Shown piece after piece: positions 736-53,700 of a DNA stretch of 57,151 bases. Position numbers and translations under genes: made by a program. The DNA comes from a virus: positions 1 to 57,151 of IMG/VR virus record IMGVR_UViG_3300035211_000082; one strand, given 5' to 3'. Under the pieces are notes generated by a model. That model saw nothing but the letters and a program-made list of their open reading frames with translations. It made no database searches and had not been told where the DNA came from. The stretch's first letter is position 1. Each line of letters opens with the position of its first letter.

Positions 736-2760
736 TTAACATTTAGCTGAAGTATTATTTTTTTGTTCCTTTTTATCTTTATATTCTTTAGATTGATCAT
801 ATATGTTTTTGCGTTCAACAATATCAAGATTGAACGCTTTCATATTCTGAAGACAGACACGCCTTATTAATTCATCTACAAACTCTGGATAATAAGGGCA
901 ATCATTTTTATCTAAAAATATTTTTCCTTTTATATGTTCGGAGTCATCAGTATTTAAATCAAATAACCCTTTAACTCTATCAAATACTTTGAAGTGTCTA
1001 TTAACTTTTACATAAGTCAGCGAAACCATGTTTTTAGTTGCGCTATGAGTATCCAGCAAAGGAAGGTTAGTATCATTATATTGCTCTTCATCATCATTAT
1101 TTCTTAAAAATCCCATATCTAATTTTGACAACTCTTTTATTGAAAATAAATGGCATCTTTTCACCGAATTTATTCCATTCCATTCATTTCTTACATTTTT
1201 ATCTGTAACAAAATAATCTGTTTTTTCAATTTGTTTTTTAAATGGTGAAACTTTTTCGTAGCATTCAGATTTTATGTTAAATTCTCTTAAATATTTCGTA
1301 ACTTTATCATATGTCTTACTTAATCTTAAGCAAAACATATCATCCTTAATGCAATAATCATCATTTTCAATAAGATTGCCGTTATCTATCATTCTGCCTA
1401 TTAGTTCTAATGTGCTTTCCGAAACTGATTTATTTTTTGTTTCACCGTCAAGATTAAACATTTTTTGAGATCTTTTAATAATTTCAAATACGCCGTCTAC
1501 GTCTTTTGTAATAACGCCATTTTTCTTAAAAACATTAAATAATAATTTATATGATAGTGCAGACATTATAATGGTATTTTTTACTCTATCAGGCATTCTT
1601 TCATTTGATAATTTTTCTTCCAAATAGTTATATGTTTCTACAATTTCTTCATCAGTTATCAATAATGTTTCATTTAATAAAGATCTGCCAAGCCTCGTAA
1701 TGCTATCTTCTAACTTTTTTATTTTTTTCATATTAGCTTCATATTTTTTATCAAAATATTGCCTTGAAAACTCAACTAATAAGACTCGGTCTTTTGCTGC
1801 AACTTCATCTATCTGCGTTTCTCCTACTATTAAAAGAGGTGCTATAATTTGATAATTTTTATATGTTAGGTCTGGCTTACCTCTATGAAGCGCATGATTA
1901 TCATATAAACTTCTTATTATGCTAGATATTAAATCTATTCTGTATTTTGTCATTTTATGTTCCTTGTATTCTTCAATTATTATTGGAAATATATTGGTTT
2001 CCGTAAACTGCTTTAATATCGCAAACTCTTTAATTGCTGAAGCTATTGAGGCTTTTATACAAGAATATCCACCAAAAAATGGTACAAATACATTTTCAGT
2101 TGTTTCAGTTTTGCCGCTCCCAGACTCGCCACAAAAAAATACAAGTGGAGTTTTCTTTTTTAGGCATTTTATCCGTCTTATTCTGTAGTTAATGAAGCAA
2201 TTTGTTACTCCAGATAATACGCTATAAACAATTTCTTCAATGTTAAAATTAAATAAACATTCATTTAAAAGCTTTATATCTTCATAAGAAGCTGGATCTT
2301 CATTAAATGCATTATCGTTTAATACTTTTTTAGATACAGAAACATGCTTATTATTGTTAGTATTATCTACATAACTCCATTTGCCATCATGTTTAACAAT
2401 CCCAACATAATCAACACCATATTTGCATATATTTGATTCGTCCTCAGTAACAAAACATTTTATAGTTTCTAAATCATTATCATTCCCTATAAACTTTAAT
2501 GTTGCATCTATTTTATTTATTGATTTTTTAAAATCTTTAACTGATGTAAAATCCTGAATATCAAGAAGCATTTCTATGCATTTTGTTTCTTTTTGAAACA
2601 TAACCCTAATTTCTATAGTATCTTTATATTTAATAATTTCTTTGGGAATTATTACAAAGTTGCTTATTGTTATTGTTTCAGAATATTCATTGCCTTTTGA
2701 GTCTGTTTTTATAATATCTTTCATATAGCTATATCCGCTAGGCTTTATTGTGAAATTCAT
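736..2760 (-). CDS. replicative NTPase/helicase of the phage-plasmid primase-helicase type (P4/D5/DUF927-like)
   Basis: 674 aa; Walker A FFCGESGSGKT, Walker B-like LLIVGETQ; lies next to the iteron field; start abuts stop of AbrB-like ORF. Confidence 0.6.
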   Translation of the reverse strand: MNFTIKPSGYSYMKDIIKTDSKGNEYSETITISNFVIIPKEIIKYKDTIEIRVMFQKETKCIEMLLDIQDFTSVKDFKKSINKIDATLKFIGNDNDLETIKCFVTEDESNICKYGVDYVGIVKHDGKWSYVDNTNNNKHVSVSKKVLNDNAFNEDPASYEDIKLLNECLFNFNIEEIVYSVLSGVTNCFINYRIRRIKCLKKKTPLVFFCGESGSGKTETTENVFVPFFGGYSCIKASIASAIKEFAILKQFTETNIFPIIIEEYKEHKMTKYRIDLISSIIRSLYDNHALHRGKPDLTYKNYQIIAPLLIVGETQIDEVAAKDRVLLVEFSRQYFDKKYEANMKKIKKLEDSITRLGRSLLNETLLITDEEIVETYNYLEEKLSNERMPDRVKNTIIMSALSYKLLFNVFKKNGVITKDVDGVFEIIKRSQKMFNLDGETKNKSVSESTLELIGRMIDNGNLIENDDYCIKDDMFCLRLSKTYDKVTKYLREFNIKSECYEKVSPFKKQIEKTDYFVTDKNVRNEWNGINSVKRCHLFSIKELSKLDMGFLRNNDDEEQYNDTNLPLLDTHSATKNMVSLTYVKVNRHFKVFDRVKGLFDLNTDDSEHIKGKIFLDKNDCPYYPEFVDELIRRVCLQNMKAFNLDIVERKNIYDQSKEYKDKKEQKNNTSAKC

Positions 2761-2925
2761 TTAACCAGCTCCAATTTCTAATTTTTCAATAATCATTTTT
2801 TTACCTTCTATTTTCATAGTTACATATTCATCAAGCTTAAGATCTTCTTTTATTTTTTTAGGAACTAGCAAATATTCAGAATTGCCTATTTTCATTAACT
2901 GCCTTACTATTTTTTTATTTTTCAT
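2761..2925 (-). CDS. AbrB/MazE/SpoVT-type small DNA-binding protein (54 aa; not in ORF track)
   Basis: ATG at 2925 preceded by ggaggtg; MKNKKIVRQLMKIGNSEYLLVPKKIKEDLKL... fits the looped-hinge-helix pattern (IGNS..L.VPK.I); TAA immediately followed by helicase ATG. Confidence 0.6.
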   Translation of the reverse strand: MKNKKIVRQLMKIGNSEYLLVPKKIKEDLKLDEYVTMKIEGKKMIIEKLEIGAG

Positions 2926-2998
2926 GCCACACCTCCATATAATCTAATTTCTGCAACAATTAAATTATAGCATATAATCAAATCAAGATAAATATTTT

Positions 2999-3805
2999 TG
3001 TTACATTTTTTTTGTTACGTTTTTTTGTAACAGCTATAACTATTTATTTTAGCTGGTTATAGCTGTATTTAAATTTTGCTGTTACATTTTTTAAAAAATG
3101 TTACACCTGCATGTAACACTTGCAAGCTTGTATACTAGTAGAGTACAGCCATTTGTTACATTGTTACGCTTATTTTTTTTCATGTATTTATATATAAATA
3201 TATAAAAACGTAAACATATGTATGCATTTTTGTATTTTTTCTAAGTAGTTATAAAATAATATTATGTAACAATGTAACAAATATCTTATAATATAGTGTT
3301 TTTGCTGAATTGACCCTGTTACATTATTTTTTTTACATATATAACAATGTAACTTTTTATATATAAATCAAGTAATATAAATGGTTATAGCTGTTATAAA
3401 AAATGTAACAAGCAAATATATACCCTATTTTGCTTACATATTAGTAATTATTTTACATATATAATAAATTACAGCTGATTCTAATAAATAATAAGTAAAT
3501 AAGTTTTGTTACTTTGTTACCGCTCACATATATATAAGAAAAATAGCGGTTTTAGCTGGTAACAAAATCGGTAACACGAGGTAACAAAATTATAAGTCGT
3601 GTTACCGTTAAAACAAATCAAAATATATTTTTCTATATGGGGGTATAAATATATATATAAGTTACTTTAATAATAAAATAATATATATATAAGACTATGA
3701 CTAAATTTTTAGGGTAACTTTTAGGGTAACTTTAGGGTAACTTTTTTACATTTGAAAAAGTTACCCTATTACAAACCATTATTATTACTATGTTTATAAG
3801 GTAAC
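2999..3805. repeat. Iteron field / candidate replication origin
   Basis: 25 copies of GTAAC/GTTAC counted (often TGTTAC/TGTAACA, in pairs such as ttgttacattgttac, ggtaacaaaatcggtaacacgaggtaacaaaat), plus TTATAGCTG repeats; non-coding, adjacent to the helicase operon. Confidence 0.6.
3711..3767. repeat. Three tandem AGGGTAACTTT units plus one inverted copy AAAGTTACCCT
   Basis: agggtaacttt at 3711, 3723, 3734; aaagttaccct at 3757-3767. Confidence 0.85.
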
Positions 3806-3913
3806 CTATATTTAAACTGACATACTTATTAAAACAAATCGCATTTCACCTTAAAAAGATGACATATATATGATTTCACTAAAGTGGATTTCACAAAGTT
3901 TGAGTCTTGTAAA

Positions 3914-3939
3914 TTTTGATCCCGGCAAAGGAAAGAAAT
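3914..3939 (+). repeat. Left inverted repeat of the 890-bp non-coding module; contains CCGGCAAA motif
   Basis: ttttgatcccggcaaaggaaagaaat; reverse complement of 4778..4803 is ttttgatccccggcaaaagaaaagat (about 22/26 identical, 1 indel). Confidence 0.85.
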
Positions 3940-3960
3940 ACTCACTTAGTTTGTTAGATC

Positions 3961-3989
3961 TGTTAATTTAGATTTAGAAGTGTTATAAT
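3961..3989 (+). promoter_or_regulatory. candidate extended -10 promoter (TGtTATAAT)
   Basis: aagtgttataat; same RTGTTATAAT box recurs at 17947-57, 27261-70, 5033-42 (plus strand) and 15310-20 (minus strand). Confidence 0.35.
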
Positions 3990-4075
3990 TGTTGTGTGCA
4001 TTTTGATTATAGAACTTAGAATTGAAAAAAGTGGTTAAGAAATTAATCGCTTTTTTCGTGCTTGATTTCTTAGCT

Positions 4076-4099
4076 ATTCTTTCCTTTTGCTGGCTCAAA
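4076..4099 (-). repeat. Degenerate third copy of the module-end repeat
   Basis: attctttccttttgctggctcaaa; rc tttgagCCAGCAAAAGGAAAGAAT. Confidence 0.5.
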
Positions 4100-4302
4100 T
4101 ATTCACAACTATTCGATTGATTTTAAAACATTTGACTTGTTTCAAAATATTAAGATAAAATAAATTTATAAATATTTTTGATAAATATTTAAAATAATAA
4201 AATAACTAAGTATTTTATATTTTTTGTATATTTTGTAAAGAACTTTTGTATTTGTTAACAAGCTGGCAAATACATTTTTTTTGTGCTTATTTTGTCTTTG
4301 CA

Positions 4303-5013: not shown

Positions 5014-5042
5014 TTGATTTATAATTAAAGTTGTGTTATTAT
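5014..5042 (+). promoter_or_regulatory. promoter TTGATT-N17-(TGt)TATTAT for the plus-strand block
   Basis: taattgatttataattaaagttgtgttattat; places the TSS after the 5041 ATG, supporting the 5074 start. Confidence 0.5.
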
Positions 5043-5073
5043 GTTAGAAAATAAATTATTGGAGGATAAAAAA

Positions 5074-5280
5074 ATGAGTAACTTTGATAGTCATAAAATA
5101 CCATTAACAAAAGATACGCCTGTAAGATTGCTAATGGATGACGGCACAGAATTATTCTTAGTATTAGACGGGAATAGTGTTGACATTAGAGCAAACCATT
5201 GTAATATTGCAATAAGGCCAAAAGCCGATAACCATATTACAATTATAAGGATTAATAGAACAATACCAAAAAAAGGATAA
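5074..5280 (+). CDS. hypothetical early protein (68 aa)
   Basis: ATG preceded by ggaggataaaaaa; internal Met of track ORF 5041..5280. Confidence 0.6.
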   Translation: MSNFDSHKIPLTKDTPVRLLMDDGTELFLVLDGNSVDIRANHCNIAIRPKADNHITIIRINRTIPKKG

Positions 5281-5285
5281 ATAAA

Positions 5286-5504
5286 ATGTTAGAAATAAAA
5301 GTAAATTACAAAAAGCTTGATGATGACATCAAGCACAAATATAGAATACCAAAAAAAGAAATTTGCAAAAACCTAGAAATAAGCTACACAGGCCTAAGCA
5401 AAAAAATCAAAAAATGCAATTTCAATGTTGCTGAGATGACTATATTATTAGACATATTAAGCATAAGTTTTGATGATTTTGTAAAATTATACTTGGAGGA
5501 TTAA
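5286..5504 (+). CDS. small HTH-type DNA-binding protein; paralog of 28803..29021
   Basis: 72 aa; both end ...(A)E(M/I)xILL(D/K)xLxISFDDF; helix-turn-helix-like centre (ICKNLEISYTGLSKKI). Confidence 0.55.
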   Translation: MLEIKVNYKKLDDDIKHKYRIPKKEICKNLEISYTGLSKKIKKCNFNVAEMTILLDILSISFDDFVKLYLED

Positions 5505-5507
5505 ATT

Positions 5508-5972
5508 ATGAATACAAACTTAGAAATAGAAAAAAAGGTAATAGAATTTAAAAAATACAAAGAAGAAAATGAAAAACTAAAAAATACTTGCGAATTGTTA
5601 ATCAAAGAATACAGAGAAAAAATTGAAGAATATAATAATAATATTCAAAAAGCAGAAGACTCATTAAAAGAACAATTGTTTAGATCAATACCTGACGCAG
5701 ACTTTAAAGAAACAAAGACTCAATTTAATTATAGGTTTCCATCTGGGAGTTTCATAAAGAAAAAACCAAGTAAGTCAATTAAATTAAGATCTGATTATAA
5801 AGAATCAGAGATACCTAAAGATTTTATTAAAATCAAAAAATCCGTTGACTGGATTAACTTCAAGAAAAATTTAATTATAAATGACGATAAAATAATTAAT
5901 AAAAACACTGGAGAAATTATTGAAAGTTGTGAAATAGAAACAAAACCTGAAGAATTTAGAATTAAAATATAA
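5508..5972 (+). CDS. coiled-coil early protein, Gp157/Gam-like; paralog of 49983..50465
   Basis: 154 aa; shares KETKTQ..Y..PS, EIP.(D/E)FIKIKKSVDWINFKK, NK.TGEI(I/V)ESCEI with the 160-aa minus-strand paralog; family name is from memory only. Confidence 0.45.
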   Translation: MNTNLEIEKKVIEFKKYKEENEKLKNTCELLIKEYREKIEEYNNNIQKAEDSLKEQLFRSIPDADFKETKTQFNYRFPSGSFIKKKPSKSIKLRSDYKESEIPKDFIKIKKSVDWINFKKNLIINDDKIINKNTGEIIESCEIETKPEEFRIKI

Positions 5973-5990
5973 ACCTGGAGGATAAAAAAA

Positions 5991-6215
5991 ATGAAATTTA
6001 CAATAAAATTGTCAGAAAAAGCAAATTTGATAGATCTTAAGAAATTAGAAATAATTGTTAAAGATTGGATTATTTCGAAAAGTATTGACTTAAAGAAATT
6101 TACTGTATACTTTACAATGAAAAATACAACACCTATACACTTATATAATGCAATTGCAACGCAAGACTATGTCGATAATACGTTTATTATGTATGATAAA
6201 ATTTGTGCAAAGTAA
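5991..6215 (+). CDS. hypothetical protein (74 aa)
   Basis: ggaggataaaaaaa ATG. Confidence 0.55.
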   Translation: MKFTIKLSEKANLIDLKKLEIIVKDWIISKSIDLKKFTVYFTMKNTTPIHLYNAIATQDYVDNTFIMYDKICAK

Positions 6216-6293
6216 ACTGTAAAGTATACAGTAAAGTATACAGTAAATTTACACAAATATTTTGCAATAAACAACAAATATTTGGAGGTTAAT

Positions 6294-6458
6294 ATGAACA
6301 TGTATTTAGATTATTTTTCATTCTGCGATGCTTGGCAAGAAAAAATTACTAGTGACATTTTTGATAAAATAATTACAGAAAAAGACAAGATAGAACAAGA
6401 AAAACGTAGCGAAATAATTGAAAGGCTAAAAAAGGATAAGAATGACAAAAATAAGTAA
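6294..6458 (+). CDS. hypothetical small protein (54 aa; not in ORF track)
   Basis: ggaggttaat ATG; MNMYLDYFSFCDAWQEKITSD...; overlaps next start. Confidence 0.45.
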   Translation: MNMYLDYFSFCDAWQEKITSDIFDKIITEKDKIEQEKRSEIIERLKKDKNDKNK

Positions 6459-6705
6459 ATTAAAGGACTTGAAAGAAATGACAGTTATAGCAATTATAGC
6501 AATGTGTATTTTGTTTTTTACAATTTGCAGTATTGCAGGATTAATTGGCAAAACAATAATTGAGTGCTTAAAATGGATATTTAAGCGTAATAAAGCTTCT
6601 AATTGTAATCTTACTTGCATTAAGTTTAATGAATGTATTAATCATGAGGACTGCATTAATTGTGTTGATTATGATAAATATATTGGTAAGGGAGATATTA
6701 AGTAA
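6442..6705 (+). CDS. small membrane protein with Cys-rich tail; paralog of 7013..7159
   Basis: hydrophobic IAIIAMCILFFTICSIAGLIG, then C..C..C..C and ...CINCVDYDKYIGKGDIK. Confidence 0.55.
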   Translation: MTKISKLKDLKEMTVIAIIAMCILFFTICSIAGLIGKTIIECLKWIFKRNKASNCNLTCIKFNECINHEDCINCVDYDKYIGKGDIK

Positions 6706-6968
6706 TGTTTAATTTATTTAAAAATATAGATGATAAAGTAAAAGATCTTGGATTTACAAAAGTTCATAGTTCAAAACTTGTAGAATGTTATGAAAGAAAA
6801 AATGAGCAATTTAATTATACTCATTGTGTAGATATAATTAGAAAAACAAAAAGGATTCCTATAGTACAAAGTTACCAAAAAGATACAGATAACATGGTAG
6901 GATTAAATATAATAGAGGCAAATATATTTATAAATAAAATAAAAAAACTTGGATGGTTTAAAAGATAA
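6705..6968 (+). CDS. hypothetical protein (87 aa)
   Basis: start overlaps previous stop (TAATG). Confidence 0.5.
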   Translation: MFNLFKNIDDKVKDLGFTKVHSSKLVECYERKNEQFNYTHCVDIIRKTKRIPIVQSYQKDTDNMVGLNIIEANIFINKIKKLGWFKR

Positions 6969-7012
6969 GATATGATGTTAAATTTGTTTAAAATATTTTG
7001 TAGTATTTAATT

Positions 7013-7159
7013 ATGAAAATTATAGTTGATGTGGAAATAGCTATCATCATGATATTTGTTTGTAATACAGATTGCGGTAAATATACTTGCATAAATAAAG
7101 AGAACTGTATTGATTGCATTGACTATGACAAGTATATTGGAGGTGAGGATTTGAAATGA
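7013..7159 (+). CDS. short paralog of 6442..6705 (48 aa; not in ORF track)
   Basis: MKIIVDVEIAIIMIFVCNTDCGKYTCINKENCIDCIDYDKYIGGEDLK; same C-terminal CI.C.DYDKYIG.(G/E)D.K; no clear SD. Confidence 0.4.
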   Translation: MKIIVDVEIAIIMIFVCNTDCGKYTCINKENCIDCIDYDKYIGGEDLK

Positions 7160-7521
7160 TATTCAATAATTTAGCAGACTTTATAATGACAATATTTTTT
7201 TCAAATAGAATAACATTTTTTAAAGATAAAATAAACAACAATACAGAAATTAAAAATAAAAAAATAGATATACAAAATACTACTTTTAAAATAGAAAAAC
7301 CTATAATTAAAGAAAATAGGCATACAACATCAGGCAGCGTTAATTATGTTAAGCCACAATTATATCCACTTTCAACCTCGTCATTAGAGCATAATAAAAT
7401 GAAATTTGAAAAGAAATATAATGTAAAACTAATTGAAAATCAAGATAATTTTACTTATTTTTTTATAAAAAATGGTAAAAAGCACGAAATATGTCAAGAA
7501 TATTTGTTAGATATGGATTAA
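7156..7521 (+). CDS. hypothetical protein (121 aa)
   Basis: ggaggtgaggatttgaa ATG, overlapping previous stop. Confidence 0.55.
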   Translation: MIFNNLADFIMTIFFSNRITFFKDKINNNTEIKNKKIDIQNTTFKIEKPIIKENRHTTSGSVNYVKPQLYPLSTSSLEHNKMKFEKKYNVKLIENQDNFTYFFIKNGKKHEICQEYLLDMD

Positions 7522-7545
7522 ATAATAATATTGGAGGATTAAAAT

Positions 7546-8100
7546 ATGAAAAAAATAAAAAGCTTATTTAAAAGAGATTATGACGGCAACAGAAAAGTTT
7601 ATAATGAAATTGTGCCAGGTTGCGAATGGGTAGCACATGGTGAGGGCGTAGCCACTAGAAAATTTAATGGTACGCCTTGCGCTATAATCAATGGCAAATT
7701 TTACAAAAGATATGATGTCAAAGATAAGGCTGTGCCAGTCGGGGCAATACCTTGTCAAAAAGAACCCGACATTGAAACCGGACATTTTCCACATTGGATA
7801 GAAATTGTTGATAATAAAGAAAATAAGTGGTTTATGGAAGGATATTATAATTTAGTAAATGCTGGACTTGCGATCAGTGGCACTTATGAACTATGCGGGC
7901 CTAAAATTAATGGCAATCCTGAAAAGTTTGAAAATCATTTTTTAGTGCATCATGGTTGCGAACAATTAGTAGATTGTCCTAGAACATTCTGGGGTATAAA
8001 AGAATATCTTGAGGATAAAGATATAGAGGGCATAGTATGGCATAGGGAAAATGGCGATATGGTTAAAATTAAAAAGAAAGATTTTGATTATAATATTTAA
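7546..8100 (+). CDS. conserved phage protein, possibly ligase-like nucleotidyltransferase fold
   Basis: 184 aa; ggaggattaaaat ATG; GEGVATRKFNGTPC resembles a KxDG-type lysine motif with N for D; weak call. Confidence 0.35.
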   Translation: MKKIKSLFKRDYDGNRKVYNEIVPGCEWVAHGEGVATRKFNGTPCAIINGKFYKRYDVKDKAVPVGAIPCQKEPDIETGHFPHWIEIVDNKENKWFMEGYYNLVNAGLAISGTYELCGPKINGNPEKFENHFLVHHGCEQLVDCPRTFWGIKEYLEDKDIEGIVWHRENGDMVKIKKKDFDYNI

Positions 8101-8187: not shown

Positions 8188-9060
8188 TTACTTTGATTTT
8201 AATATTCCAATTCTTACAGCCTCATTTAATGGCAATATATCAGCTAATAAAGCTATATTTTCATGCATCTTATCACGCTTTAATAATGTATCGGCATCAG
8301 CCTTTTGCCAATCGTCCCAATATTCTATACCGCAGGCAGATTTTATATCTTTTGATACAGATTTTATATAATTCTGAAACTCTCTTTTGTTTGGACACTT
8401 ATCCCATAATGCTCCAGACATTTTTTTGAAAGAATCTCCACTTTTATTTCTATATTTTATTAAATAATCATATAGCCATTCATATGTTTCTATCTTTAAT
8501 TTAGGGCTAATTGCCAAGGCGATATCAATAAATAAATATGGATGCACCCAAGTATGTGCACTTCTGCCGCGACCTTTAATTATTGGATTACCATATTTAA
8601 ATGTTAATTCGTCAATGAATTCTTTCGTAGATTTTTGAGTTAACCATAATGATAAATTAAAATCTGATAATTCATTATTTCTACGCCATTTATTTCCAGC
8701 CTTAACTAAATCTGTAGCACTAAAAAATTCGCTTTTAGATTTAGTAATTGAATTTATTTTTACATTAAATATCATATATTTACTATTTAATGGAATATCA
8801 TTTAAAACATTATTTATTGTTTTTTTTATTTTATTAATGTCTATTTTAAACCATTCACCTTTTGTATTATATTCCATCAATCTGTTATGTATTATTGATT
8901 CGTTTTCAAAACAATTATTTATTGAATCTACACAATAAACAAGACTTAAGCTTTGTCCGATAGCAGCCTCTATCGATCGTTTTCTTTTTTCTATATTGTT
9001 TGTGGCTCCTATTTTGTATAATCCATTTTTTTCGTTAAATAAAACATATATTTTATTCAT
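8188..9060 (-). CDS. T5orf172 (GIY-YIG-like) domain fused to KilA-N DNA-binding domain
   Basis: N-term IYVLFNEKNGLYKIGATNNIEKRKRSIE...GEWF; C-half SAHTWVHPYLFIDIALAISPKLKIETYEWLYD is KilA-N-like. Confidence 0.6.
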   Translation of the reverse strand: MNKIYVLFNEKNGLYKIGATNNIEKRKRSIEAAIGQSLSLVYCVDSINNCFENESIIHNRLMEYNTKGEWFKIDINKIKKTINNVLNDIPLNSKYMIFNVKINSITKSKSEFFSATDLVKAGNKWRRNNELSDFNLSLWLTQKSTKEFIDELTFKYGNPIIKGRGRSAHTWVHPYLFIDIALAISPKLKIETYEWLYDYLIKYRNKSGDSFKKMSGALWDKCPNKREFQNYIKSVSKDIKSACGIEYWDDWQKADADTLLKRDKMHENIALLADILPLNEAVRIGILKSK

Positions 9061-9328: not shown

Positions 9329-10426
9329 TTATTTCATATATTTATTGATAACTTTTTTTCTCAAAAGTATTCCACCGCCAACAAATACAATCAAAGCACC
9401 AATTGCGAAAAAAACATAATCTAATGTTGAGTCTTCGCCAGTTTTAGGCAAGCCGCCAGAGTAAACAGTTTTGTCATCTTTGGATGAATTACTTGTGTTA
9501 CTCGATTCGCTTAAATCACTTGACTCATTAGAACCTGAATTATAAGAATAATCATAATTGCTTGTTGAATTGTAAGTATTCTCTTCTTTGCTGGAGTCGT
9601 TATTGACCGTAACAACTTCTTCTTTCTTAATTTTTACATATTTTCCTTTGTGCTGCCACTTATTATATTTGAATAAATAACCGCTATGCCATTTACAAGA
9701 TTTCTTTACATAAATACCAAATTTCATACATTTTAGCTTATGCCAATCCTTGGTATCTTCTGTTTTAATAATTTCTTCTTTGCCATCAACAATTTTGAAC
9801 TGAATAGTACATTTCAAAACTTTTTCTGCAAACATTACCGAATATCCAGCATATTTACCGCTAGTAATTTTATATCCAGTTATATATATTTCTTTTACTC
9901 CAACAATTTCATCAACAGCTTCCACACCTTCAACGGCTTCAGTGATCGTAACCTTAGTTACTTTAACATTAACTGTAAAACTTGCTCCACCATTAAATTC
10001 ATTGTCAGCTTGATTTGTAGATTCATCAAGCACGATAACATTGTTGCCTTCTACTAAATCGTTCTTTGCAACATGAATAGTATAACTTGGACTAGTTCTA
10101 GTTGCCTCTACATAAATATCAGGTATTTCATTTTCAAAAGGATCTGATTCTGTATTTTCTGTAACTTCTTTATCGTTAAATTTAACATCATATATCCAGC
10201 TATTATCAATGGCTGTTTGATTTGGCGTTATAGAATAATTTATAGTATATCCAATAACTTCATCGACAGCTTCTACACCTTCAACACCAGCAACATATTC
10301 CTGAGTTATATTTTCTTCCTCAATAAATTCACCATTACTCCCCTTATGTCCCGAAGCAAAGACTCCAGCAAAAGAAACAAATAAGAATAACATTATAATT
10401 GTTGAACTAATTATCTTTTTTAACAT
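9329..10426 (-). CDS. secreted LPXTG cell-wall-anchored surface protein
   Basis: signal peptide MLKKIISSTIIMLFLFVSFAGVFA; C-term LPKTGEDS + hydrophobic stretch + RKK; internal repeat VEGVEAVDE(V/I) twice. Confidence 0.75.
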   Translation of the reverse strand: MLKKIISSTIIMLFLFVSFAGVFASGHKGSNGEFIEEENITQEYVAGVEGVEAVDEVIGYTINYSITPNQTAIDNSWIYDVKFNDKEVTENTESDPFENEIPDIYVEATRTSPSYTIHVAKNDLVEGNNVIVLDESTNQADNEFNGGASFTVNVKVTKVTITEAVEGVEAVDEIVGVKEIYITGYKITSGKYAGYSVMFAEKVLKCTIQFKIVDGKEEIIKTEDTKDWHKLKCMKFGIYVKKSCKWHSGYLFKYNKWQHKGKYVKIKKEEVVTVNNDSSKEENTYNSTSNYDYSYNSGSNESSDLSESSNTSNSSKDDKTVYSGGLPKTGEDSTLDYVFFAIGALIVFVGGGILLRKKVINKYMK

Positions 10427-10448
10427 TTATAAATCTCCTCCATTTTTT

Positions 10449-10814
10449 TTATTTTATATATTTGCCTTGAACATTTCTTTTTTGCTTGTTCAAAGTTCTT
10501 TTTCTTAACCACATTAAAGATTCTTCTAATTTTGTTATAGCTACAGCATTTTCTCTACATCTAAAATCAGAATTCTGAAAATTTTCAAGACGATTAATGC
10601 AGATCGCAATTAAATCTTCCATAAAAATACCATTTAGTCCAGCTTCTTTAACTCCGCCTTGTTGAAAATGTACTTTGCAAAGCATATTATTATTATCATT
10701 TTGCAAAATCTCATAATCATGAGGTGCATTAAATTGAATACTGTCATTGTCTATGACTATATGAGTATTATCAGTTGTTATTAAATCATGTTCTAATTTT
10801 GAATATTTATCCAT
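10449..10814 (-). CDS. conserved phage protein of unknown function
   Basis: 121 aa; ggaggattaaa ATG; C-terminal FQNSDFRCRENAVAITKLEESLMWL, a motif I recall from many phage hypotheticals. Confidence 0.55.
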   Translation of the reverse strand: MDKYSKLEHDLITTDNTHIVIDNDSIQFNAPHDYEILQNDNNNMLCKVHFQQGGVKEAGLNGIFMEDLIAICINRLENFQNSDFRCRENAVAITKLEESLMWLRKRTLNKQKRNVQGKYIK

Positions 10815-14476: not shown

Positions 14477-15211
14477 TTATTTCAATTGTGTAAGTTCTAA
14501 ATTAGGAATAATTTCCTTAACTCCTAAACTATTGCTTAAGTCAATAACTCTTTTTTTAGCTAATTGAAAAATGTCTTTATAAAACATTTCTTTGTCCATA
14601 CCTTCAATAAGAGCTTGCCTTACAATCATATCAGCTACTGTAATTTTATTTAGTTGCTGAATATTTAATATTTCTCTAACATTTGTGAACTTTTCTTTTA
14701 TTATAAAAAATGCTTGATTCTCCATTTTACTTATTGCCATATAATATTTGTTGGCTGATTTACTACCTTGTTTTGTGGCATATTCTACAAATATTTTTAT
14801 TACATCCGTTTCTTGTATTCTACCTATTTTTGATTGATTCCTAGTTTCTAAGTAATGTCGATTTGCTTTTTGCGTTTTTTGTTCAAGTATCCATTTGCGC
14901 ATTTGAACAAATTGTTTAGATATTTCCATTTTGGCCTTCATGACAGTGTCAATTTCGTTTGCCTTTGTTCTCATATTAGTTATTAAAAAAATATATTGTT
15001 CTTCGTTAAGATAAAAAACTTTTGAAGTCCCACCACCAATATTATCCTTTTTTGGAACACTTTGAAATGACAGGACCCCCAAAATTTCTAATTCTTTTTT
15101 GTATTTATTTACCAAATTATATATTACTCTATGTTGCCTATTTAATTTTTCTGCTAAAATTTTTGTTGACACATAAATAGTTTCATTTTTTACATTTAAT
15201 AAATTACTCAC
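14477..15211 (-). CDS. Rha-family phage regulatory protein / antirepressor
   Basis: 244 aa; VSTKILAEKLNRQHRVIYNLVNKY...KVFYLNEEQYIFLITNMR, typical Rha N-domain. Confidence 0.65.
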   Translation of the reverse strand: MSNLLNVKNETIYVSTKILAEKLNRQHRVIYNLVNKYKKELEILGVLSFQSVPKKDNIGGGTSKVFYLNEEQYIFLITNMRTKANEIDTVMKAKMEISKQFVQMRKWILEQKTQKANRHYLETRNQSKIGRIQETDVIKIFVEYATKQGSKSANKYYMAISKMENQAFFIIKEKFTNVREILNIQQLNKITVADMIVRQALIEGMDKEMFYKDIFQLAKKRVIDLSNSLGVKEIIPNLELTQLK

Positions 15212-15319
15212 AAAATCACCTCGACTATATTATAAAGTAATTACTTTATAATGTCAATGTTCGCAAAAAATAGCACGCCACCAACGACGCACTATCTAAG
15301 CTACTTACTATTATAACAC

Positions 15320-18277: not shown

Positions 18278-18925
18278 TTACATTTTTTTTATTATTGCTT
18301 CAAAGCCTAATTCTTTTAGTTTGTCGGCTATATCTTGGGCGTTTTTTTTATCTTTAAAAGCCCCTACTTGAACCCTATACAATTTCTTATTATTGTCAAC
18401 ATTTATTATTTTTTTATCAAATATAGCCTTTCTAAAATAAGTATATGCACTATTATAACCAGCAATATTTAAATCAACATACATGGCTGGACATAGTTTT
18501 CTACTTGCATCATAATGACGTATTAAATTTTTAGTAAAATTATTTTCATGCAAATACTTGATATAGGCAATAGCATTTTCTTGAGTCTTTGCAAAGTCGC
18601 CATCTGCATTTACGCACATTTCTATAGATATTGTATTTTGATTCGAATAACCATACTTATTATGACCATCACCAATTGCCCAAGTATAATACTTATACCA
18701 GTTATTTACGCGCCAAATTGATTTGTCATCGATAAATACATCTGCTGAGGCATTTCGATTACCATTATTGAAATAATTAAAGTGTGCTTCTGCATCAGCG
18801 CCTTTTGAGCTATTGCCTGTATAATGGATAACTATTGCCTTGAAATTTGATTTCGATCTTGTTAACGCAGTGCGATTGTAGCTTATTTGCTTAATGTAAT
18901 ATGGTATTTTGTTTATTGTCTGCAT
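18278..18925 (-). CDS. endolysin: N-acetylmuramoyl-L-alanine amidase (Amidase_2/PGRP type) + SPOR domain
   Basis: AIVIHYTGN...ADAEAHFNYF...SIEMC...RHYD..RKLCP; C-term YRVQVGAFKDKKNAQDIADKLKELGFEAII = SPOR. Confidence 0.8.
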   Translation of the reverse strand: MQTINKIPYYIKQISYNRTALTRSKSNFKAIVIHYTGNSSKGADAEAHFNYFNNGNRNASADVFIDDKSIWRVNNWYKYYTWAIGDGHNKYGYSNQNTISIEMCVNADGDFAKTQENAIAYIKYLHENNFTKNLIRHYDASRKLCPAMYVDLNIAGYNSAYTYFRKAIFDKKIINVDNNKKLYRVQVGAFKDKKNAQDIADKLKELGFEAIIKKM

Positions 18926-19599
18926 GTTGTCACTCCTTTTAATTGTAATATTTCACCTAATTTCTTCTTTCTAGTTTCATAATCCATATCTAATTCTATC
19001 ATAATAGCATTTTTGCGCTGCATATCTTCGATTAAATTTATCTGCTCAATAGATAGATAATCTCTAATAGTCCTAACGTTTTCATCTATATTATGTTTTT
19101 GTTTAAATTGTTTTGCATTCATACCTAGAACAATTTTGTTGATCATGTTATACTCATTAGAGTAATGAAATGGCTTTATTTCTTTACCTTGAAGTTCTCT
19201 GTGACTTTTAATGGAATCTGTTAAATGGGTAGATTCCATTTTTAATTTCTGTCTTGATTTATAATATTCTTCGTATTGATTAAATTTGTTGATATAAGCT
19301 ATCTTGTATTTTAATGCTGTTTTTCCAGTAAAACCCATAGTTAATAAAACAAATCCGTCTCTATTCATTATATACATTTTGTCACTTCTACCTGACTTAT
19401 TTTTCTTAAAGGTCAGCGCAAAATTTCCTACATTTTCTCCCATTTCAGATAAGTTTTCAATCAAATTATCTATAGCTTTTAAAACATCTTTATGGCTTTT
19501 TGTAAAATTTTTAGCTATAGATTTAGAGTCGACAAGAAATTTATTTCCTTTATCAAATATTCCATATTCTTTTTTAATTATTTTTAATTCTTTATCCAT
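18913..19599 (-). CDS. Rha-family phage regulatory protein / antirepressor
   Basis: ggaggatatt ATG (MDKELKII...); SKSIAKNFTKSHKDVLKAIDNL...MYIMNRDGFVLLTMGFTGKTALKYKIAYI. Confidence 0.65.
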   Translation of the reverse strand: MDKELKIIKKEYGIFDKGNKFLVDSKSIAKNFTKSHKDVLKAIDNLIENLSEMGENVGNFALTFKKNKSGRSDKMYIMNRDGFVLLTMGFTGKTALKYKIAYINKFNQYEEYYKSRQKLKMESTHLTDSIKSHRELQGKEIKPFHYSNEYNMINKIVLGMNAKQFKQKHNIDENVRTIRDYLSIEQINLIEDMQRKNAIMIELDMDYETRKKKLGEILQLKGVTTCRQ

Positions 19600-19611
19600 A
19601 ATATCCTCCAA

Positions 19612-19735
19612 AATTAAAAGACTTTATAAATCCAAATTTCCCCACTCGAATTTATAAAGTCTTATACTATTTTTAAATAGTTTGTACTGGTGGGGAATCA
19701 ATGCAAACTATTTAACTCCCACCATTATATCATTT
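19612..19735 (-). promoter_or_regulatory. structured 5' leader, copy A (two hairpins with complementary loops)
   Basis: own promoter ttgatt-N17-tataat (rc of 19722-19750). Hairpins 19675-19713 and 19619-19662; loop gtggggaa (19690-97) complements loop ttccccac (19638-45). The proximal hairpin is followed by a U-run and the SD. Confidence 0.6.
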
Positions 19736-19753
19736 GAAATAAAAATAATCAAA

Positions 19754-20053
19754 CTACCCTTTTAACTGCTTAACCAACTCAATCAACCCATAAATGCACC
19801 CACTAACCCCACTAATCATTAATGCCAATTTCTTGTAAGACAAATTCTTATTATCATTTTCTCTCTTTTCAATTTTTTCAACATTGTGGTTACAGTCTTT
19901 TTTAGTAACATAATCTTTTTTAATTTCATTTATTATTTTGTTATTTTCTTTGACATCTGCTTGCAATATTTTCATATCATCTTTTATATCTTCTCTTAAA
20001 TTTTTTACATTATCATTTATGCTTTCTAGTAGTATTCTAGTTGATTCATCCAC
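19754..20053 (-). CDS. XhlA-like / holin-associated membrane protein (tentative)
   Basis: 99 aa; N-terminal coiled coil, single C-terminal TM LALMISGVSGCIYGLIELV; between tail fibre and lysin. Confidence 0.4.
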   Translation of the reverse strand: MDESTRILLESINDNVKNLREDIKDDMKILQADVKENNKIINEIKKDYVTKKDCNHNVEKIEKRENDNKNLSYKKLALMISGVSGCIYGLIELVKQLKG

Positions 20054-32391: not shown

Positions 32392-35208
32392 TCATACTCC
32401 TTTTTTCACAAAATTCATTTTCCTATAAAAGGTAAAATAATGTTTGCTATATTTAATGTAACATTCCGCATTTGATTGATTAATATCAACATTAGTTTTA
32501 GTTAACACATTTATTATGTTTAAGACTAAATAGGCATTTTTTGTATTAATATCAATATTAGTTTTATCAATACGTATATTAACCCATCCAGATGTATTAG
32601 TGCTTACACTAATATTGCTTGCACTAATAGCAATGTTACTCTTTGTTAATAATAAAGTTTTACTAATATTAATATCAACTACTTTGCTATTTATGTTAAT
32701 GTTACTTTTTATAATATTTATACTTTTACTAATACTTATTATAACAACTTTTGCATTGACACTAACATTTGATAAATTAATAATATTATTATAACTTACA
32801 TTATTGTTTACATTTTTTGTATTTATTAATATATTAGTTAAATCTAATAAAATATTTTTATTAATACCAATTGTAACATCTTTTGTATTAATATTAACAT
32901 TTGTTTTACTTACATTGTTATTAATATATAATTTTAAAGAAACATTTTTTGTATTAACATTTATATTTGCTTTTTCAATATTGATATTTTTTTCAATATT
33001 AGTTATTGCATTTTTTGCATTTAAAGAAATATTAGTTTTGGTTAATAAAATATTTTTGTCAACACAAATTGTAACATCTTTTGCATTGGTACTTATGTTA
33101 GTTTTAGTAGTAACAATATTAGCATACACTTGAATATTAATATCTTTTGCATCAATAGAAATATTGCTTTTAATTAATGATAAAATTTTATCTATACTCA
33201 AACTAACTGTTTCATTACTTATATTTATATTACTTTTAGTAATGTCCAAAACTTCATCAAGTCCAGTACTTACTAAAATATCCTTAGTATTTATGTTAAT
33301 ATTTGATAAATTAGTTATTATGCCATAGCCAATATTAACTCCAACATCTTTTGTGCTAATGTCAATGCCGCTTTTGGTTAACAAAATATTTTTATCAATA
33401 TTAATTCCAACATCTTTTATGTTGATATCAATATTTGTTTTATTGACATTGTTATTAATATATGTTTGTAAAGAAACATCTTTGATATCAATGCCTATAT
33501 TTGTTTTTGTTGTTTCAATATTTCTTCCAACACCAATTACTACGTCCTGTACATATAAAGGAATATTAGTTTTGATTAATAAAATATTTTTATTAATATT
33601 AAGTGTAACATTTTTTGTATCAATACTTACATTGGTTTTAGTGGTATTAATATTAGCATACACCTGAATATTAACATCTTTAGTATTTACTAATATGTTT
33701 GTTTTGTCTATACTCAAATTTTTAGCAAAACTAATTATAATGTCCTTTGTATTAATACTAATACCTGTTTTATCAACATCAATATTAGCATTTTTAATAG
33801 CTTCTATACCTACGCTATTTGTATCAATAGAAATATTGCTTTTAGTTAATGAAACAACATTACCTACATTGATATTAACATTTTTTGTGTTAATAGATAC
33901 ATTTGTTTTTTCAACGTTTATTGACACATTTTTAGTAACATCAATATTTGCATTTTGTGTATTTAAAGTAACATTATTTTTTGTTATTACAATATTTGTT
34001 GCAGTACCTATATTGACATTTTTAGTATTGATTAAAATATTAGTTTTAGTTAAATTTATATTTTTTGCAATCAATGTAACAACATCTTGAGCATCTATCG
34101 TTATACCAGTTTTAACTAAATTTTCTAAAAAGCCAAAAATAATATTAATATCTTGCGAATCAATACTTACATTACTTTTTATGACAGATTCATTAATGTT
34201 TTTAATAGCTATTATACTTACATTTTCTGCACTAATAGCAATATTAGTTTTTGTAACTAATACATTTTTATCGATTACAATACCAACTGTTTTTGTGTTA
34301 ACTGATACATTAGTCTTTATAATTGATTCACTAATATTCTTTGTAACTGATATGCTAACATCTTGCGTATTAATTTGTATATCACTTTTTGTTACAAGAT
34401 TATTTGTACTTTTAACAGTAGCTATCTCTACTATCTTTGTGTTTATTGATATATTAGTTTTTGTTAAAGAGTTACTCACATTTTTAATTGTAGAGATAGT
34501 TACATCTTTACTATTTATAGAAATATTAGTTTTTGTTGTACTAACACCAATATCAGTAGACATTGTAACTGTTTGAATATCTAAAGAAATATTAGTTTTT
34601 GTTGTCGGCACTGAAACATCAGCACTTCCAGCATCTACAATTACATTTTGTGTGTCAATACTAATATTTGTTTTTGTTATTGATATTGATTCATTTAAGT
34701 TAAAACTTCCAGTTATGGTTAGCAACGTATCTGTTTCGCTATAATCGTACGAATCAAGTTGAACTTTGTCACCAATACCACCACTAGAATTATCAGTGAA
34801 GACCAACAAAGCATTCCCAGCAACCCAAGAACCTCTATTAATGATTTCTTGGATTATACTTGTTACATCAACAGAAAATGACGTCCATGTTTTTGCTGTT
34901 GTTGCTGTAGTTTTTGATAAAGCTGCAAACTCACTATAATTTGTTGGCGCAGCTTGATTGTCAGCATCAGCACCATAAAAATCTGAACTAACATCTTCTG
35001 GATCAGTAGATGAGTATTCTGTAAAAGTTATAGTAGCACTAGAGATCGTTGAACCTTGATCTATTCCAATGCTTTGAAATCTCCAAAATCCTTCGTAATT
35101 AAAATATGGAGATATATGAACAAAATTATAATTATTATTAAACGAACTTGTGCCATTACTATACCCATCATCTGCTCCAATAGAAATATACCTTTGTAAT
35201 GTTGCCAT
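32392..35208 (-). CDS. giant repeat protein (about 938 aa): ~170-aa N-terminal domain, then >30 degenerate ~21-23-aa repeats
   Basis: aggtgattcaa ATG GCA (MATLQRY...); repeats such as (L/V)TKTNISI(N/D)TK(N/D)V.I....KN; lies in the head module between connector and capsid-side genes. Confidence 0.7.
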   Translation of the reverse strand: MATLQRYISIGADDGYSNGTSSFNNNYNFVHISPYFNYEGFWRFQSIGIDQGSTISSATITFTEYSSTDPEDVSSDFYGADADNQAAPTNYSEFAALSKTTATTAKTWTSFSVDVTSIIQEIINRGSWVAGNALLVFTDNSSGGIGDKVQLDSYDYSETDTLLTITGSFNLNESISITKTNISIDTQNVIVDAGSADVSVPTTKTNISLDIQTVTMSTDIGVSTTKTNISINSKDVTISTIKNVSNSLTKTNISINTKIVEIATVKSTNNLVTKSDIQINTQDVSISVTKNISESIIKTNVSVNTKTVGIVIDKNVLVTKTNIAISAENVSIIAIKNINESVIKSNVSIDSQDINIIFGFLENLVKTGITIDAQDVVTLIAKNINLTKTNILINTKNVNIGTATNIVITKNNVTLNTQNANIDVTKNVSINVEKTNVSINTKNVNINVGNVVSLTKSNISIDTNSVGIEAIKNANIDVDKTGISINTKDIIISFAKNLSIDKTNILVNTKDVNIQVYANINTTKTNVSIDTKNVTLNINKNILLIKTNIPLYVQDVVIGVGRNIETTKTNIGIDIKDVSLQTYINNNVNKTNIDINIKDVGINIDKNILLTKSGIDISTKDVGVNIGYGIITNLSNININTKDILVSTGLDEVLDITKSNINISNETVSLSIDKILSLIKSNISIDAKDINIQVYANIVTTKTNISTNAKDVTICVDKNILLTKTNISLNAKNAITNIEKNINIEKANINVNTKNVSLKLYINNNVSKTNVNINTKDVTIGINKNILLDLTNILINTKNVNNNVSYNNIINLSNVSVNAKVVIISISKSINIIKSNININSKVVDINISKTLLLTKSNIAISASNISVSTNTSGWVNIRIDKTNIDINTKNAYLVLNIINVLTKTNVDINQSNAECYIKYSKHYFTFYRKMNFVKKGV
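32450..34700 (-). repeat. coding tandem-repeat tract of the giant protein
   Basis: recurring ...aatattagttttngt.../...atcttttgt... on the plus strand; period about 63-69 nt, degenerate. Confidence 0.7.
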
Positions 35209-44627: not shown

Positions 44628-45329
44628 TTATCTTTTTATTTTCACGCTTCCGCCTGCATCTATATCTCCGGTAACGTTTTCACAACTGCATGATCTTTCC
44701 CTTTTATTTAATAATTTAGGTGTATATTTATTATATAGCAATGTTTTAATCACGCTTGTATCTTGTGTAATTTCAAATAATTTTACATAATCCTCTAATA
44801 CCATTTTACGTAAATCTTTCATGTCTTCACTCATATCATTTTTCTTTACCATTTTTTTAAATCCAAAAGCATTACTAACAGCTTTGTTTGTTACTGAATT
44901 AGCTTTAATATAATTTATTTTTGCTGTTTGTTCTTCGGTTGGCAATAAATCGTGCAATAATGTCATAGCTTGTTTTTGATGTTCTTTATCTTGTTTAACA
45001 TTTTTGTATTTTTGAATTTGATTTGATAATTCTTCAACTTTTTCTATTAATAAATGTCTAATTTTAGCATTATATCTTGAAGCAATTTGTAACATGCCTT
45101 TTTTGGAAAGTTTATAATGCGCATTTGATATTATGCTGTTAACATTAGTATTTTCAACGAGCTCAAAAATGAGCTCCGTCGATATATGATTGCTATTGAG
45201 CTCTATAATTTCTTCTCTAATATCTCTCATTACATTTTTATGATCTTTGTTTGCCCATTTAGCTATATCCAATGATACCCAATTAAACCCATCATGTCTT
45301 AATAAAATTAATCCTAATTCTCTATTCAT
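44628..45329 (-). CDS. Rha/antirepressor-like regulatory protein
   Basis: 233 aa; LDIAKWANKDHKNVMRDIREEI...; carries the same structured leader as 18913..19599. Confidence 0.5.
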   Translation of the reverse strand: MNRELGLILLRHDGFNWVSLDIAKWANKDHKNVMRDIREEIIELNSNHISTELIFELVENTNVNSIISNAHYKLSKKGMLQIASRYNAKIRHLLIEKVEELSNQIQKYKNVKQDKEHQKQAMTLLHDLLPTEEQTAKINYIKANSVTNKAVSNAFGFKKMVKKNDMSEDMKDLRKMVLEDYVKLFEITQDTSVIKTLLYNKYTPKLLNKRERSCSCENVTGDIDAGGSVKIKR

Positions 45330-45455
45330 ATTTCCTCCATATAATAAAAGTATCTTTGTAAATCCAAATTTCCCAGCTCGAATTTACAAAGATACTATAA
45401 CTTATTATATGGATTATATTGGCTGGGAATCAATATAATCCATATAATTTATTAA
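45330..45455 (-). promoter_or_regulatory. structured 5' leader, copy B
   Basis: Hairpins 45406-45446 and 45350-45395; loop gctgggaa (45422-29) complements loop ttcccagc (45370-77). Stems differ from copy A but stay paired. Confidence 0.6.
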
Positions 45456-53417: not shown

Positions 53418-53700
53418 CCGTTAAACAAAACTTATAAAAACTTTATAAAAGTTATTCATCTTGTCTTATAAAGGTAATAGTAAAAGACAGGGTTTAACCG
53501 TTAAACAAAACTTATAAAAGTTAATAAAGCTTATTCCTCATTCATTACGTCCCATTTGGTATAATCTTTAAAGATTATAGCTACTTTGGTTTGATATAAC
53601 GCTCCAAAGGCTTAAATTCCCGTATAACGCACGGTACACATTAACATTATCTTTCAAATGATACTATGCTAATTTTGATAAATTTATTGCAGCATTTAAA
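53418..53700 (-). ncRNA. candidate TnpB omega-RNA scaffold region (overlaps the tnpB 3' end and runs to the right end)
   Basis: Minus-strand stems ccgt..acgg, ctttgg..ccaaag, ataatcttt/aaagattat downstream of the tnpB stop; the position matches known omega-RNAs; exact ends unknown. Confidence 0.45.

Follow-up and report, generated by a model that had tools for sequence, protein, structure and literature searches.

Two copies of a two-hairpin leader in a phage genome

The IMG/VR virus record IMGVR_UViG_3300035211_000082 was analysed over its full length of 57,151 nucleotides (nt), hereafter the window, a 57-kb stretch of 29% G+C in which nearly all genes lie on the minus strand. Two of these genes, rhaA (from an ATG at 19599 to a stop at 18913) and rhaB (from an ATG at 45329 to 44628), encode members of the Pfam family Phage_pRha (E=2.6e-25 and E=8e-10, respectively), and each is preceded by one copy, A or B, of a structured 5' leader whose two hairpin loops are complementary to each other. 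The order of the parts is the same in both copies: a near-consensus sigma-70 promoter, a first hairpin (hp1) with a 9-nt loop, an A-rich linker, a second hairpin (hp2) with a 9-10-nt loop, a U-rich tract (U-tract), a Shine-Dalgarno (SD) sequence and the gene. All of these features are on the minus strand.

In copy A, the promoter (19752-19724) comprises TTGATT, a 17-nt spacer and a TG-extended TATAAT (10 of 12 matches), and its -10 element ends about 10 nt ahead of hp1-A. This 5'-terminal hairpin (19713-19675) has a stem of 15-17 bp with conserved U-A and G-C closing pairs and carries the 9-nt loop 1-A, AUUCCCCAC (19698-19690), of which positions 19697-19690 (UUCCCCAC) pair with loop 2-A. Between the two hairpins lies the A-rich single-stranded linker AAAAAUAGUAU (19664-19674), which can alternatively pair with the U-tract and lengthen the stem of hp2. 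The second hairpin, hp2-A (19663-19618), is of the intrinsic-terminator type and has a free energy of about -22 kcal/mol. Its lower stem varies, its UCGA/UUGG top, two of whose pairs are G·U, is invariant, and its loop is GUGGGGAAAU. Within this loop, the target GUGGGGAA (19645-19638) is the 8-nt complement of loop 1-A, and the free energy of the duplex is about -13 kcal/mol. The U-tract UUAAUUUU (19617-19610) follows immediately 3' of hp2-A, and the SD of rhaA, GGAGG as read from the sequence, occupies 19609-19605.

Copy B begins directly after the terL stop codon with a promoter (45493-45465) composed of TTGTAA, a 17-nt spacer and TATAAT. Its first hairpin, hp1-B (45446-45406), has an 18-bp stem and the 9-nt loop AUUCCCAGC (45430-45422), in which 45429-45422 pair with the complementary loop 2-B target GCUGGGAA (45377-45370). 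This target is carried by the terminator-type hairpin hp2-B (45396-45349; 20 pairs, four of them GC, and a T-run), which is followed on its 3' side by the U-tract (45348-45339) and by the sequence GGAGG, the SD of rhaB (45338-45334).

The hairpins, the promoters of both copies and the 8-nt loop complementarity, with two adjacent positions changed on both partners between A and B, had been noted in a preliminary description of this DNA, and all of them were found as described. In addition, both second hairpins were called as terminator-like sites, with 0.1-0.2 such sites expected in shuffled sequence (20 pairs plus a T-run and 0.1 expected for hp2-A), and the folding z-scores against shuffled sequence were -4.5 for copy A and -6.1 for copy B. 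A 26-nt core around loop 2 occurs in the window only in these two copies (0 expected), and a covariance-model scan of the window run without filters revealed no third one.

Relatives and conserved anatomy

Relatives were collected by scanning IMG/VR and JGI metagenomes for the conserved flanks of the loops, with the pairing letters left free. A third route, independent of the DNA motif, ran through contigs that encode RhaA or RhaB homologs. The resulting set comprises 21 complete elements with 12 loop-pair types, and all relatives are on metagenomic or viral contigs. The protein-homology route contributed seven elements, all of which conform to the pattern; six of them were new, giving five distinct leader sequences beyond that of copy A (contig L291 carries the very leader sequence of copy A, and L125 and L169 are one contig). 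As these seven were reached through Rha homologs, the DNA motif did not influence their selection. When 11 elements were used to build a covariance model, it recovered all 11, together with a divergent member and a copy of hp2 alone, both on contig L122, and found nothing further in 0.94 Mb of control phage loci.

Elsewhere, the searches were negative. Among the 120 matches listed from bacterial genome contigs there was no true element, all being chance matches to the conserved flanks, and blastn against 50,697 GenBank phage records returned chance matches only. Consistent with the earlier impression that the leader belongs to no known leader or riboswitch class, no Rfam 15 family matched at the gathering score over the whole window or at E<=10 over 19500-19900, and full-text literature searches found no description of the element.

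The anatomy of the leader is strongly conserved. In all elements, hp1 has about 17 bp and a 9-nt loop, with the U-A and G-C closing pairs invariant. The stem of hp2 has 19-25 bp, with a U-rich tail behind it throughout the set; the only variant of its UCGA/UUGG top is CCGA/UUGG in L122, in which pairing is retained, and its loop follows the pattern G-N5-AA(A)U. The loop-loop helix (the kiss) takes up eight of the nine nt of loop 1 and eight of the 9-10 nt of loop 2, or seven in GAAU variants. Computed free energies range from -9 to -14 kcal/mol for the kiss, from -11 to -26 kcal/mol for hp1 and from -20 to -28 kcal/mol for hp2. Most elements have a near-consensus promoter (the matches are weaker in L415 and L409) whose -10 element ends 7-10 nt ahead of hp1, or 19 nt in copy B, and because the -10 element ends just ahead of it, hp1 is taken to form the 5' end of the RNA. 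The SD and the start codon lie 10-20 nt beyond hp2, with no promoter in between. The proximal hairpin had been proposed to be either a terminator or an SD-sequestering element; its terminator-type character was borne out, whereas the SD is unpaired, 8-12 nt past the stem, and is part of no conserved helix in any element.

Other kinds of leader architecture were also considered. No second complement to either loop was found beyond chance within 120 nt upstream or 300 nt downstream, and a second target near the ribosome-binding site (RBS) or inside the gene, of the kind known from c4 and P4, was rejected because none was found within 300 nt downstream. A leader peptide was rejected as well, since the short open reading frames (ORFs) across hp1 are not conserved, and no conserved alternative fold was found. 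In the search for antisense promoters, no plus-strand promoter-like site reads across hp2-A, and the only such site at copy B (45419-45448) points away from hp2. A GGUGGG pairing adjacent to the -10 element, directed at loop 1 of copy A, was rejected because it occurs only in the lineage of copy A and L291 and at chance level (48 of 500 shuffles). The octamer at this place, GGUGGGAG (19716-19723, minus strand), between the -10 element and hp1 of copy A, wins the minimum-free-energy (MFE) fold when upstream sequence is included, and it would occur only in read-through transcripts from the operon upstream of copy A.

Exact copies of the two loop 2 targets occur once more each on the minus strand of the window, GUGGGGAA at 54791-54798 near the start of a tnpB gene and GCUGGGAA at 34814-34821 inside a 941-aa ORF (about 0.16 expected by composition in each case). 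As neither has the conserved flanks, these extra octamers, at 54798 and 34821, are probably due to chance.

Covariation of the stems and of the loop-loop helix

The strongest evidence for the leader as an RNA comes from the way in which its helices change among relatives. The 12 loop-pair types, written as loop 1/loop 2, are AUUCCCCAC/GUGGGGAA (copy A), AUUCCCAGC/GCUGGGAA (copy B), AUUCCCGAC/GUCGGGAA, AUUCCCGGC/GUCGGGAA, AUUGCGACC/GGUCGCAA, AUUGCCGCC/GGUGGCAA, AAUGGCCGC/GCGGCCAA, AAUGACCGC/GCGGUCAA, AAUCGCAGC/GCUGCGAA, AAUCGCAUC/GGUGCGAA, AAUCACGGC/GCCGUGAA and AUUGAUGGC/GCCAUCAA. Five letters per loop vary over these types, more than one type of base pair is seen at six of the eight pairs of the kiss, and cross-pairing between copies A and B drops to five contiguous bp. 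Between cognate loops, all 60 of the 60 variable positions are Watson-Crick or G·U pairs, whereas non-cognate combinations pair at a mean of 2.58 of the five variable positions, and none of 100000 permutations reached 60/60. Pairing over eight of eight loop positions was likewise absent from the chance flank matches in bacterial genomes (0 of the 120 listed).

A model-based alignment of 22 sequences extends this result to the stems. In this alignment, 96.5% of the cells are paired, compared with 72.8% in shuffled alignments and 31-48% when the partners are slid against each other. Changes on both sides of a pair were observed at 11 of 15 pairs in hp1, at five of eight in the kiss and at all 12 in the lower stem of hp2, so that the stems, which had been described from copies A and B as different in sequence and still paired, co-vary in both hairpins across the set. 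RNAalifold independently predicts hp1 (17 bp) and hp2. Moreover, three loop types are separated from a neighbouring type by a change in just one partner, and each of these changes gives a G·U pair on the sense strand that would read A·C on the opposite strand; these wobbles, along with the many G·U pairs of the stems, show that the sense RNA, and not the DNA, is selected. A three-helix RNA, consisting of hp1, hp2 and the kiss between their loops, is therefore under selection, and the core of the original proposal, a structured kissing-loop or pseudoknot RNA, is upheld by 12 co-varying loop types and by the stems. The additional homologs collected from viral and metagenome contigs thus show covariation, instead of lacking it.

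A modular cassette in front of unrelated genes

The leader had been described upstream of two Rha genes, and in the wider set it is not confined to such genes. Apart from Rha-family proteins, the same cassette precedes a fusion of ParB-like and N6_N4 methyltransferase domains, a Bro-N protein, a 71-aa Cys-rich membrane peptide, a Cys-rich small protein, a Dam-like methyltransferase (assigned from reading its translation only) and an epimerase-like protein (assigned from reading its first residues only). The promoter and hp1 are the same in L121, L123, L124 and L160, but different genes follow, with the junction just past the U-tract of hp2. The cassette is thus modular and not Rha-specific. 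In the window itself, four Rha paralogs are encoded on the minus strand (14477-15211, 18913-19599, 44628-45329 and 47923-48699), of which only the second and third in this order have the leader, while the other two carry plain consensus promoters. A Rha-specific leader was also rejected on the grounds that Rha homologs at about 40% identity are found in integrase/CI/Cro modules without it. Since the downstream gene varies, binding of the leader by Rha proteins is unlikely as a general mechanism.

Two genomic sites are preferred, the terL-portal junction (copy B of the window, L123 and L164) and the lysis region (copy A, L291, L293 and L442). The genes that need read-through of hp2 include an endolysin gene (copy A of the window, L291 and L442) as well as those located between terL and portal (copy B of the window, L123 and L164). 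In the window, the endolysin gene (18278-18925, minus strand; Amidase_2 and SPOR domains) has its start overlapped by the 3' end of rhaA. The cassette promoter has a separate canonical terminator immediately ahead of it in L378, L409 and L413, and because of this the downstream genes in these three must be transcribed through hp2.

An orphan hp2 was observed in L122 (7219-7308, plus strand). It is of type C (GUCGGGAA), sits directly after a stop codon and has the usual linker and U-tract without hp1 or a promoter. The same contig holds a complete divergent element of another type (10401-10528), and no cognate type-C hp1 was found in it by a scan with a 17-nt loop pattern. The IMG/VR sequences that match the type-C hp1 loop included no orphan hp1.

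A proposed kissing-loop attenuator and its alternatives

We favour the view, with a confidence that is about evenly divided, that each copy is an autonomous accessory-gene cassette in which the leader acts as a transcription attenuator governed by the kissing loop. An attenuator with its level of read-through set by the kiss is the simplest function that fits the anatomy. The strong sigma-70-type promoter would start the RNA at the foot of hp1, which would present a pre-formed 9-nt loop, and some 45 nt later the polymerase would have made the 5' arm and the loop of hp2. Eight nt of the hp1 loop (seven in some types) would then pair with the first eight nt of the hp2 loop, and this loop-loop helix would set the split between stopping at hp2, which would free a two-hairpin RNA of about 105 nt, and read-through to the SD and the promoterless gene.

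In its most likely direction, hp1 would capture the nascent loop of hp2 before the 3' arm is made and thereby cause anti-termination in cis. Once freed, short RNAs that share the address type would act in trans as competitors for the loops and bring termination back, resulting in a dose- or time-dependent shut-off similar to that of the P4 CI, N15 CA and P1 c4 leader RNAs. An action of hp1 against termination, rather than for it, is favoured for several reasons: hp2 has all the marks of a terminator competent on its own, L122 uses hp2 alone at the end of a gene in the manner of an operon-end terminator, and needed genes lie behind hp2. The kiss in cis may precede closure of the hp2 stem, because hp1 is complete and the target exposed about 25-30 nt before the U-tract. 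By our estimate from the stem and linker lengths, a full kiss would also be difficult to reconcile with a fully closed hp2. For a regulated outcome, something would have to modulate the kiss. Somewhat doubtfully, we suggest that the variable letters of the loops are a programmable RNA-RNA address, by which the short terminated RNAs would recognise only cognate nascent leaders in trans. If this is true, an intrinsic terminator would be switched by a dose sensor private to each cassette and to each co-infecting phage, and two hairpins on a single strand would do for phages what incompatibility control does for plasmids.

Several points weigh against this picture. Every step beyond the selection of the three helices is one that we infer, namely termination at hp2, its modulation by the kiss, the direction of the effect and any action in trans. 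With A/U-rich stems and with essential late genes behind it, hp2 may be leaky, or mainly a processing or stability element. An intramolecular kiss of 8 bp between folded stems of 17 bp and 19-25 bp joined by a short linker looks sterically strained by our geometric estimate, and the pairing may be transient, intermolecular or accompanied by opening of hp1. In addition, a nested alternative wins the MFE fold in some truncated transcripts. The pairs of the kiss evolve at a rate of 0.46, with no clear excess over the stem pairs (0.42 and 0.45), so that these rates give no clear sign of the selection for new specificities expected of a trans-acting system. Finally, two complete cassettes in one genome are known from a single case (n=1).

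The opposite direction of control would leave the anatomy and the covariation identical: the kiss may stabilise or nucleate the terminator, much as the L5-L13 kissing loop does for the regulatory hairpin of cobalamin riboswitches, so that tight termination is the default and disruption of the kiss by a cognate RNA, a protein or temperature turns the gene on. Pairing promotes termination in the case of P4 CI (PMC4825925), and a delay timer would suit the endolysin behind copy A. We nevertheless regard this as unlikely, given that hp2 already looks strong alone, that the orphan hp2 is used without hp1 and so apparently needs no help, and that there is no conserved anti-terminator structure for the kiss to pre-empt. 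A further alternative gives up the regulation of the downstream gene, with promoter, hp1 and hp2 forming a small-RNA gene whose loops pair between molecules, as dimers or multimers, or with cognate mRNA leaders, and read-through being incidental; such an RNA would be an immunity or incompatibility determinant of the phage or an RNA scaffold. The layout is indeed typical of small RNAs (a strong promoter, a 5' hairpin, an A/U-rich linker, and a terminator hairpin with a U-tail), the intramolecular kiss looks strained for short linkers by the geometric estimate given above, there are 12 address types with the two copies of this genome differing, and the pRNA of phi29 is a precedent for co-varying intermolecular loop pairs. 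We consider this alternative, including the proposed roles, to have a rather small chance of being correct, since it does not account for downstream genes that have no other promoter, neither an orphan hp1 nor a second target was found, address evolution gives no sign of being faster, no Rfam pRNA model matches, and the positions in the genomes are varied.

Nucleotides that are invariant although pairing does not require it could instead point to a shared partner, that is, the kissed fold may be a platform for a protein or ligand (an antiterminator, RNase III or a riboswitch-like effector) or a nuclease-resistant 5' cap. These nucleotides comprise the U-A and G-C closing pairs, the first A of loop 1 and the motif UCGA...AA(A)UUUGG with its fixed G·U at the top of hp2, and the hp1 stem is held constant at about 17 bp. 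The downstream genes, however, are functionally unrelated, which makes product feedback and metabolite sensing unlikely, no riboswitch family matches, and a mere stabiliser needs neither a U-tract nor complementary loops; the platform thus appears slightly less probable again than a small-RNA gene. Least of all do we credit the notion that the 8-bp inverted repeat represents DNA half-sites for a dimeric protein such as Rha, with the covariation reflecting their co-evolution. Rha-family proteins are DNA-binding regulators, and half-sites forced to match would also change together, but all three single-difference loop types give a sense-strand G·U, for which the chance is about 1 in 6 each if random. 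Furthermore, the boxes coincide with the loops of two hairpins, the stems of which co-vary and contain many G·U pairs, the flanks of the boxes are not symmetric and the downstream protein is often not Rha, which together render the half-sites highly improbable.

Comparison with known regulatory RNAs

The kissing-loop attenuator that we favour resembles the processed leader antisense RNAs of phage immunity and anti-immunity operons. Among these, the c4 RNA of P1 and P7 controls an antirepressor-type gene (P1 ant), and the CA RNA of N15 causes premature termination. As in P4 CI, N15 CA, P1/P7 c4 and IsrK, the antisense element and its target are here on the same strand and in the same transcript, just past one promoter. 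Because both partners share one strand, their pairing must be kept by compensatory change, with specificities that differ among relatives, and complementarity within one transcript kept in this way is what the C4-family RNAs and the present elements have in common (12 types, 60/60 positions). In P4, seqB of the CI RNA pairs with seqA and seqC in the leader from which it derives, leading to premature termination, and IsrK of Gifsy-1 exists in a short form, a terminated small RNA, and in a long form, an mRNA made by read-through, ahead of the antirepressor gene anrP (PMC4825925). We propose a similar coexistence here, of a short RNA that is terminated or processed, as in IsrK and P4, with a read-through mRNA.

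The differences from the C4 family are equally clear. No C4 model matched at the gathering score in the window or at E<=10 over 19500-19900. Unlike C4, with its a2/b2 or seqA/seqC boxes at the RBS, the present leader has a single target in the loop of a terminator hairpin and leaves the SD unpaired. The phages are AT-rich, with probably Gram-positive hosts, no lysogeny module was seen in the 32 of about 83 window ORFs that were scanned, and the module is also found in front of many genes other than antirepressors. The leader therefore shares its logic with the leader RNAs of P4, N15, P1/P7 and Gifsy-1 and is not homologous to them: it is an RNA family absent from Rfam 15, of the same general type of regulation as same-strand antisense leaders.

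Plasmids offer a second point of comparison. In pT181, pIP501, pAMbeta1 and pCF10 Anti-Q, the use of an intrinsic terminator is decided by kissing between a nascent leader and the hairpin of a small RNA, and the specificities resemble incompatibility groups; in antisense-driven attenuation of the pT181/pIP501 type, pairing promotes termination. All of the present elements have the sequence features of an intrinsic terminator, a stable hairpin and then a U-rich tract on the transcribed strand. In contrast to attenuation of the pT181/pIP501 type, their partners are on one strand, instead of being opposite-strand antisense RNAs with automatic complementarity, and the conserved anti-terminator/terminator alternative has no counterpart among them, as no conserved alternative fold was found. 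The loops of terminators can form kissing complexes, for example, in OxyS-fhlA (PMC11979758).

The geometry proposed for the favoured attenuator has a close parallel in cis, where the loop of an upstream hairpin kisses the loop of a downstream regulatory hairpin. In the L5-L13 interaction of the cobalamin riboswitch, an upstream loop kisses the loop of the expression-platform hairpin in this way and stabilises the regulatory hairpin. Compared with that riboswitch, the present leader lacks a ligand-binding aptamer core and an Rfam match and is a minimal pair of hairpins before unrelated phage genes; in general, it differs from riboswitches in that the genes downstream are unrelated in function. 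The phi29-family pRNA, of about 120 nt, likewise has two mutually complementary loops that co-vary among relatives, and these pair between molecules over 4 nt to form a ring on the portal. Both are thus phage RNAs with two complementary, co-varying loops. In distinction to phi29 pRNA, the leader has an 8-nt match, two copies per genome, accessory genes behind it, a terminator end and no match to the Rfam pRNA model; these phages carry ordinary TerS/TerL packaging genes, and the window has terminase and portal genes.

If confirmed, the leader would be a very compact regulatory RNA, composed of two hairpins and one terminator, whose specificity resides in a few co-varying loop letters and which nature already provides in at least 12 orthogonal versions. 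Among the few same-strand antisense leader controls, those of P1, P4, N15 and Gifsy-1, it would stand as a novel structural type and as the first such example from AT-rich, probably Gram-positive, phages. It would also show how 'morons', mobile accessory genes inserted at terL-portal or lysis genes, bring their own regulated transcription unit, and the natural orthogonal kissing pairs could be used as parts for synthetic terminator switches.

Other features of the window and its relatives

A third Rha paralog of the window, beside rhaA and rhaB, has a promoter (TTGACA...TATAAT, about 15225-15260, minus strand) that overlaps the perfect palindrome TTATAAAGTAATTACTTTATAA. From its sequence, this palindrome looks like an operator, that is, a different control of a paralogous gene. 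A T5orf172/KilA-N protein is also encoded (8188-9060, minus strand), and the 32 of about 83 window ORFs that were scanned included no integrase or repressor.

An LPXTG cell-wall-anchor protein is encoded at 9329-10426 (minus strand), and this protein and the SPOR-domain amidase endolysin suggest a Gram-positive host, with a Firmicute indicated; more generally, the phages that carry the cassette are AT-rich and their hosts probably Gram-positive. The only sizeable plus-strand block of the window is a cluster at 5041-8100, including 7546-8100, with a Mu Gam-like protein and an RNA ligase. Among the relatives, L164 has an 813-aa ORF (1786-4227, plus strand) directly upstream of the cassette and the portal gene, in which an intein splicing domain was detected; we take it to be the large terminase from its position, no terminase domain having been detected.

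Near one end of the window, a tnpB gene of the IS605 type (53664-54815, minus strand) encodes OrfB_IS605 and Cas12f1-like TNB domains, and a 50-aa ORF (54769-54921, minus strand) precedes it and overlaps its start. Directly downstream of tnpB lies a full-length RAGATH-18 RNA (53534-53610, minus strand; 59 bits, E=3e-9), which may be the guide, or omega-RNA, part of a TnpB element inside the phage genome.

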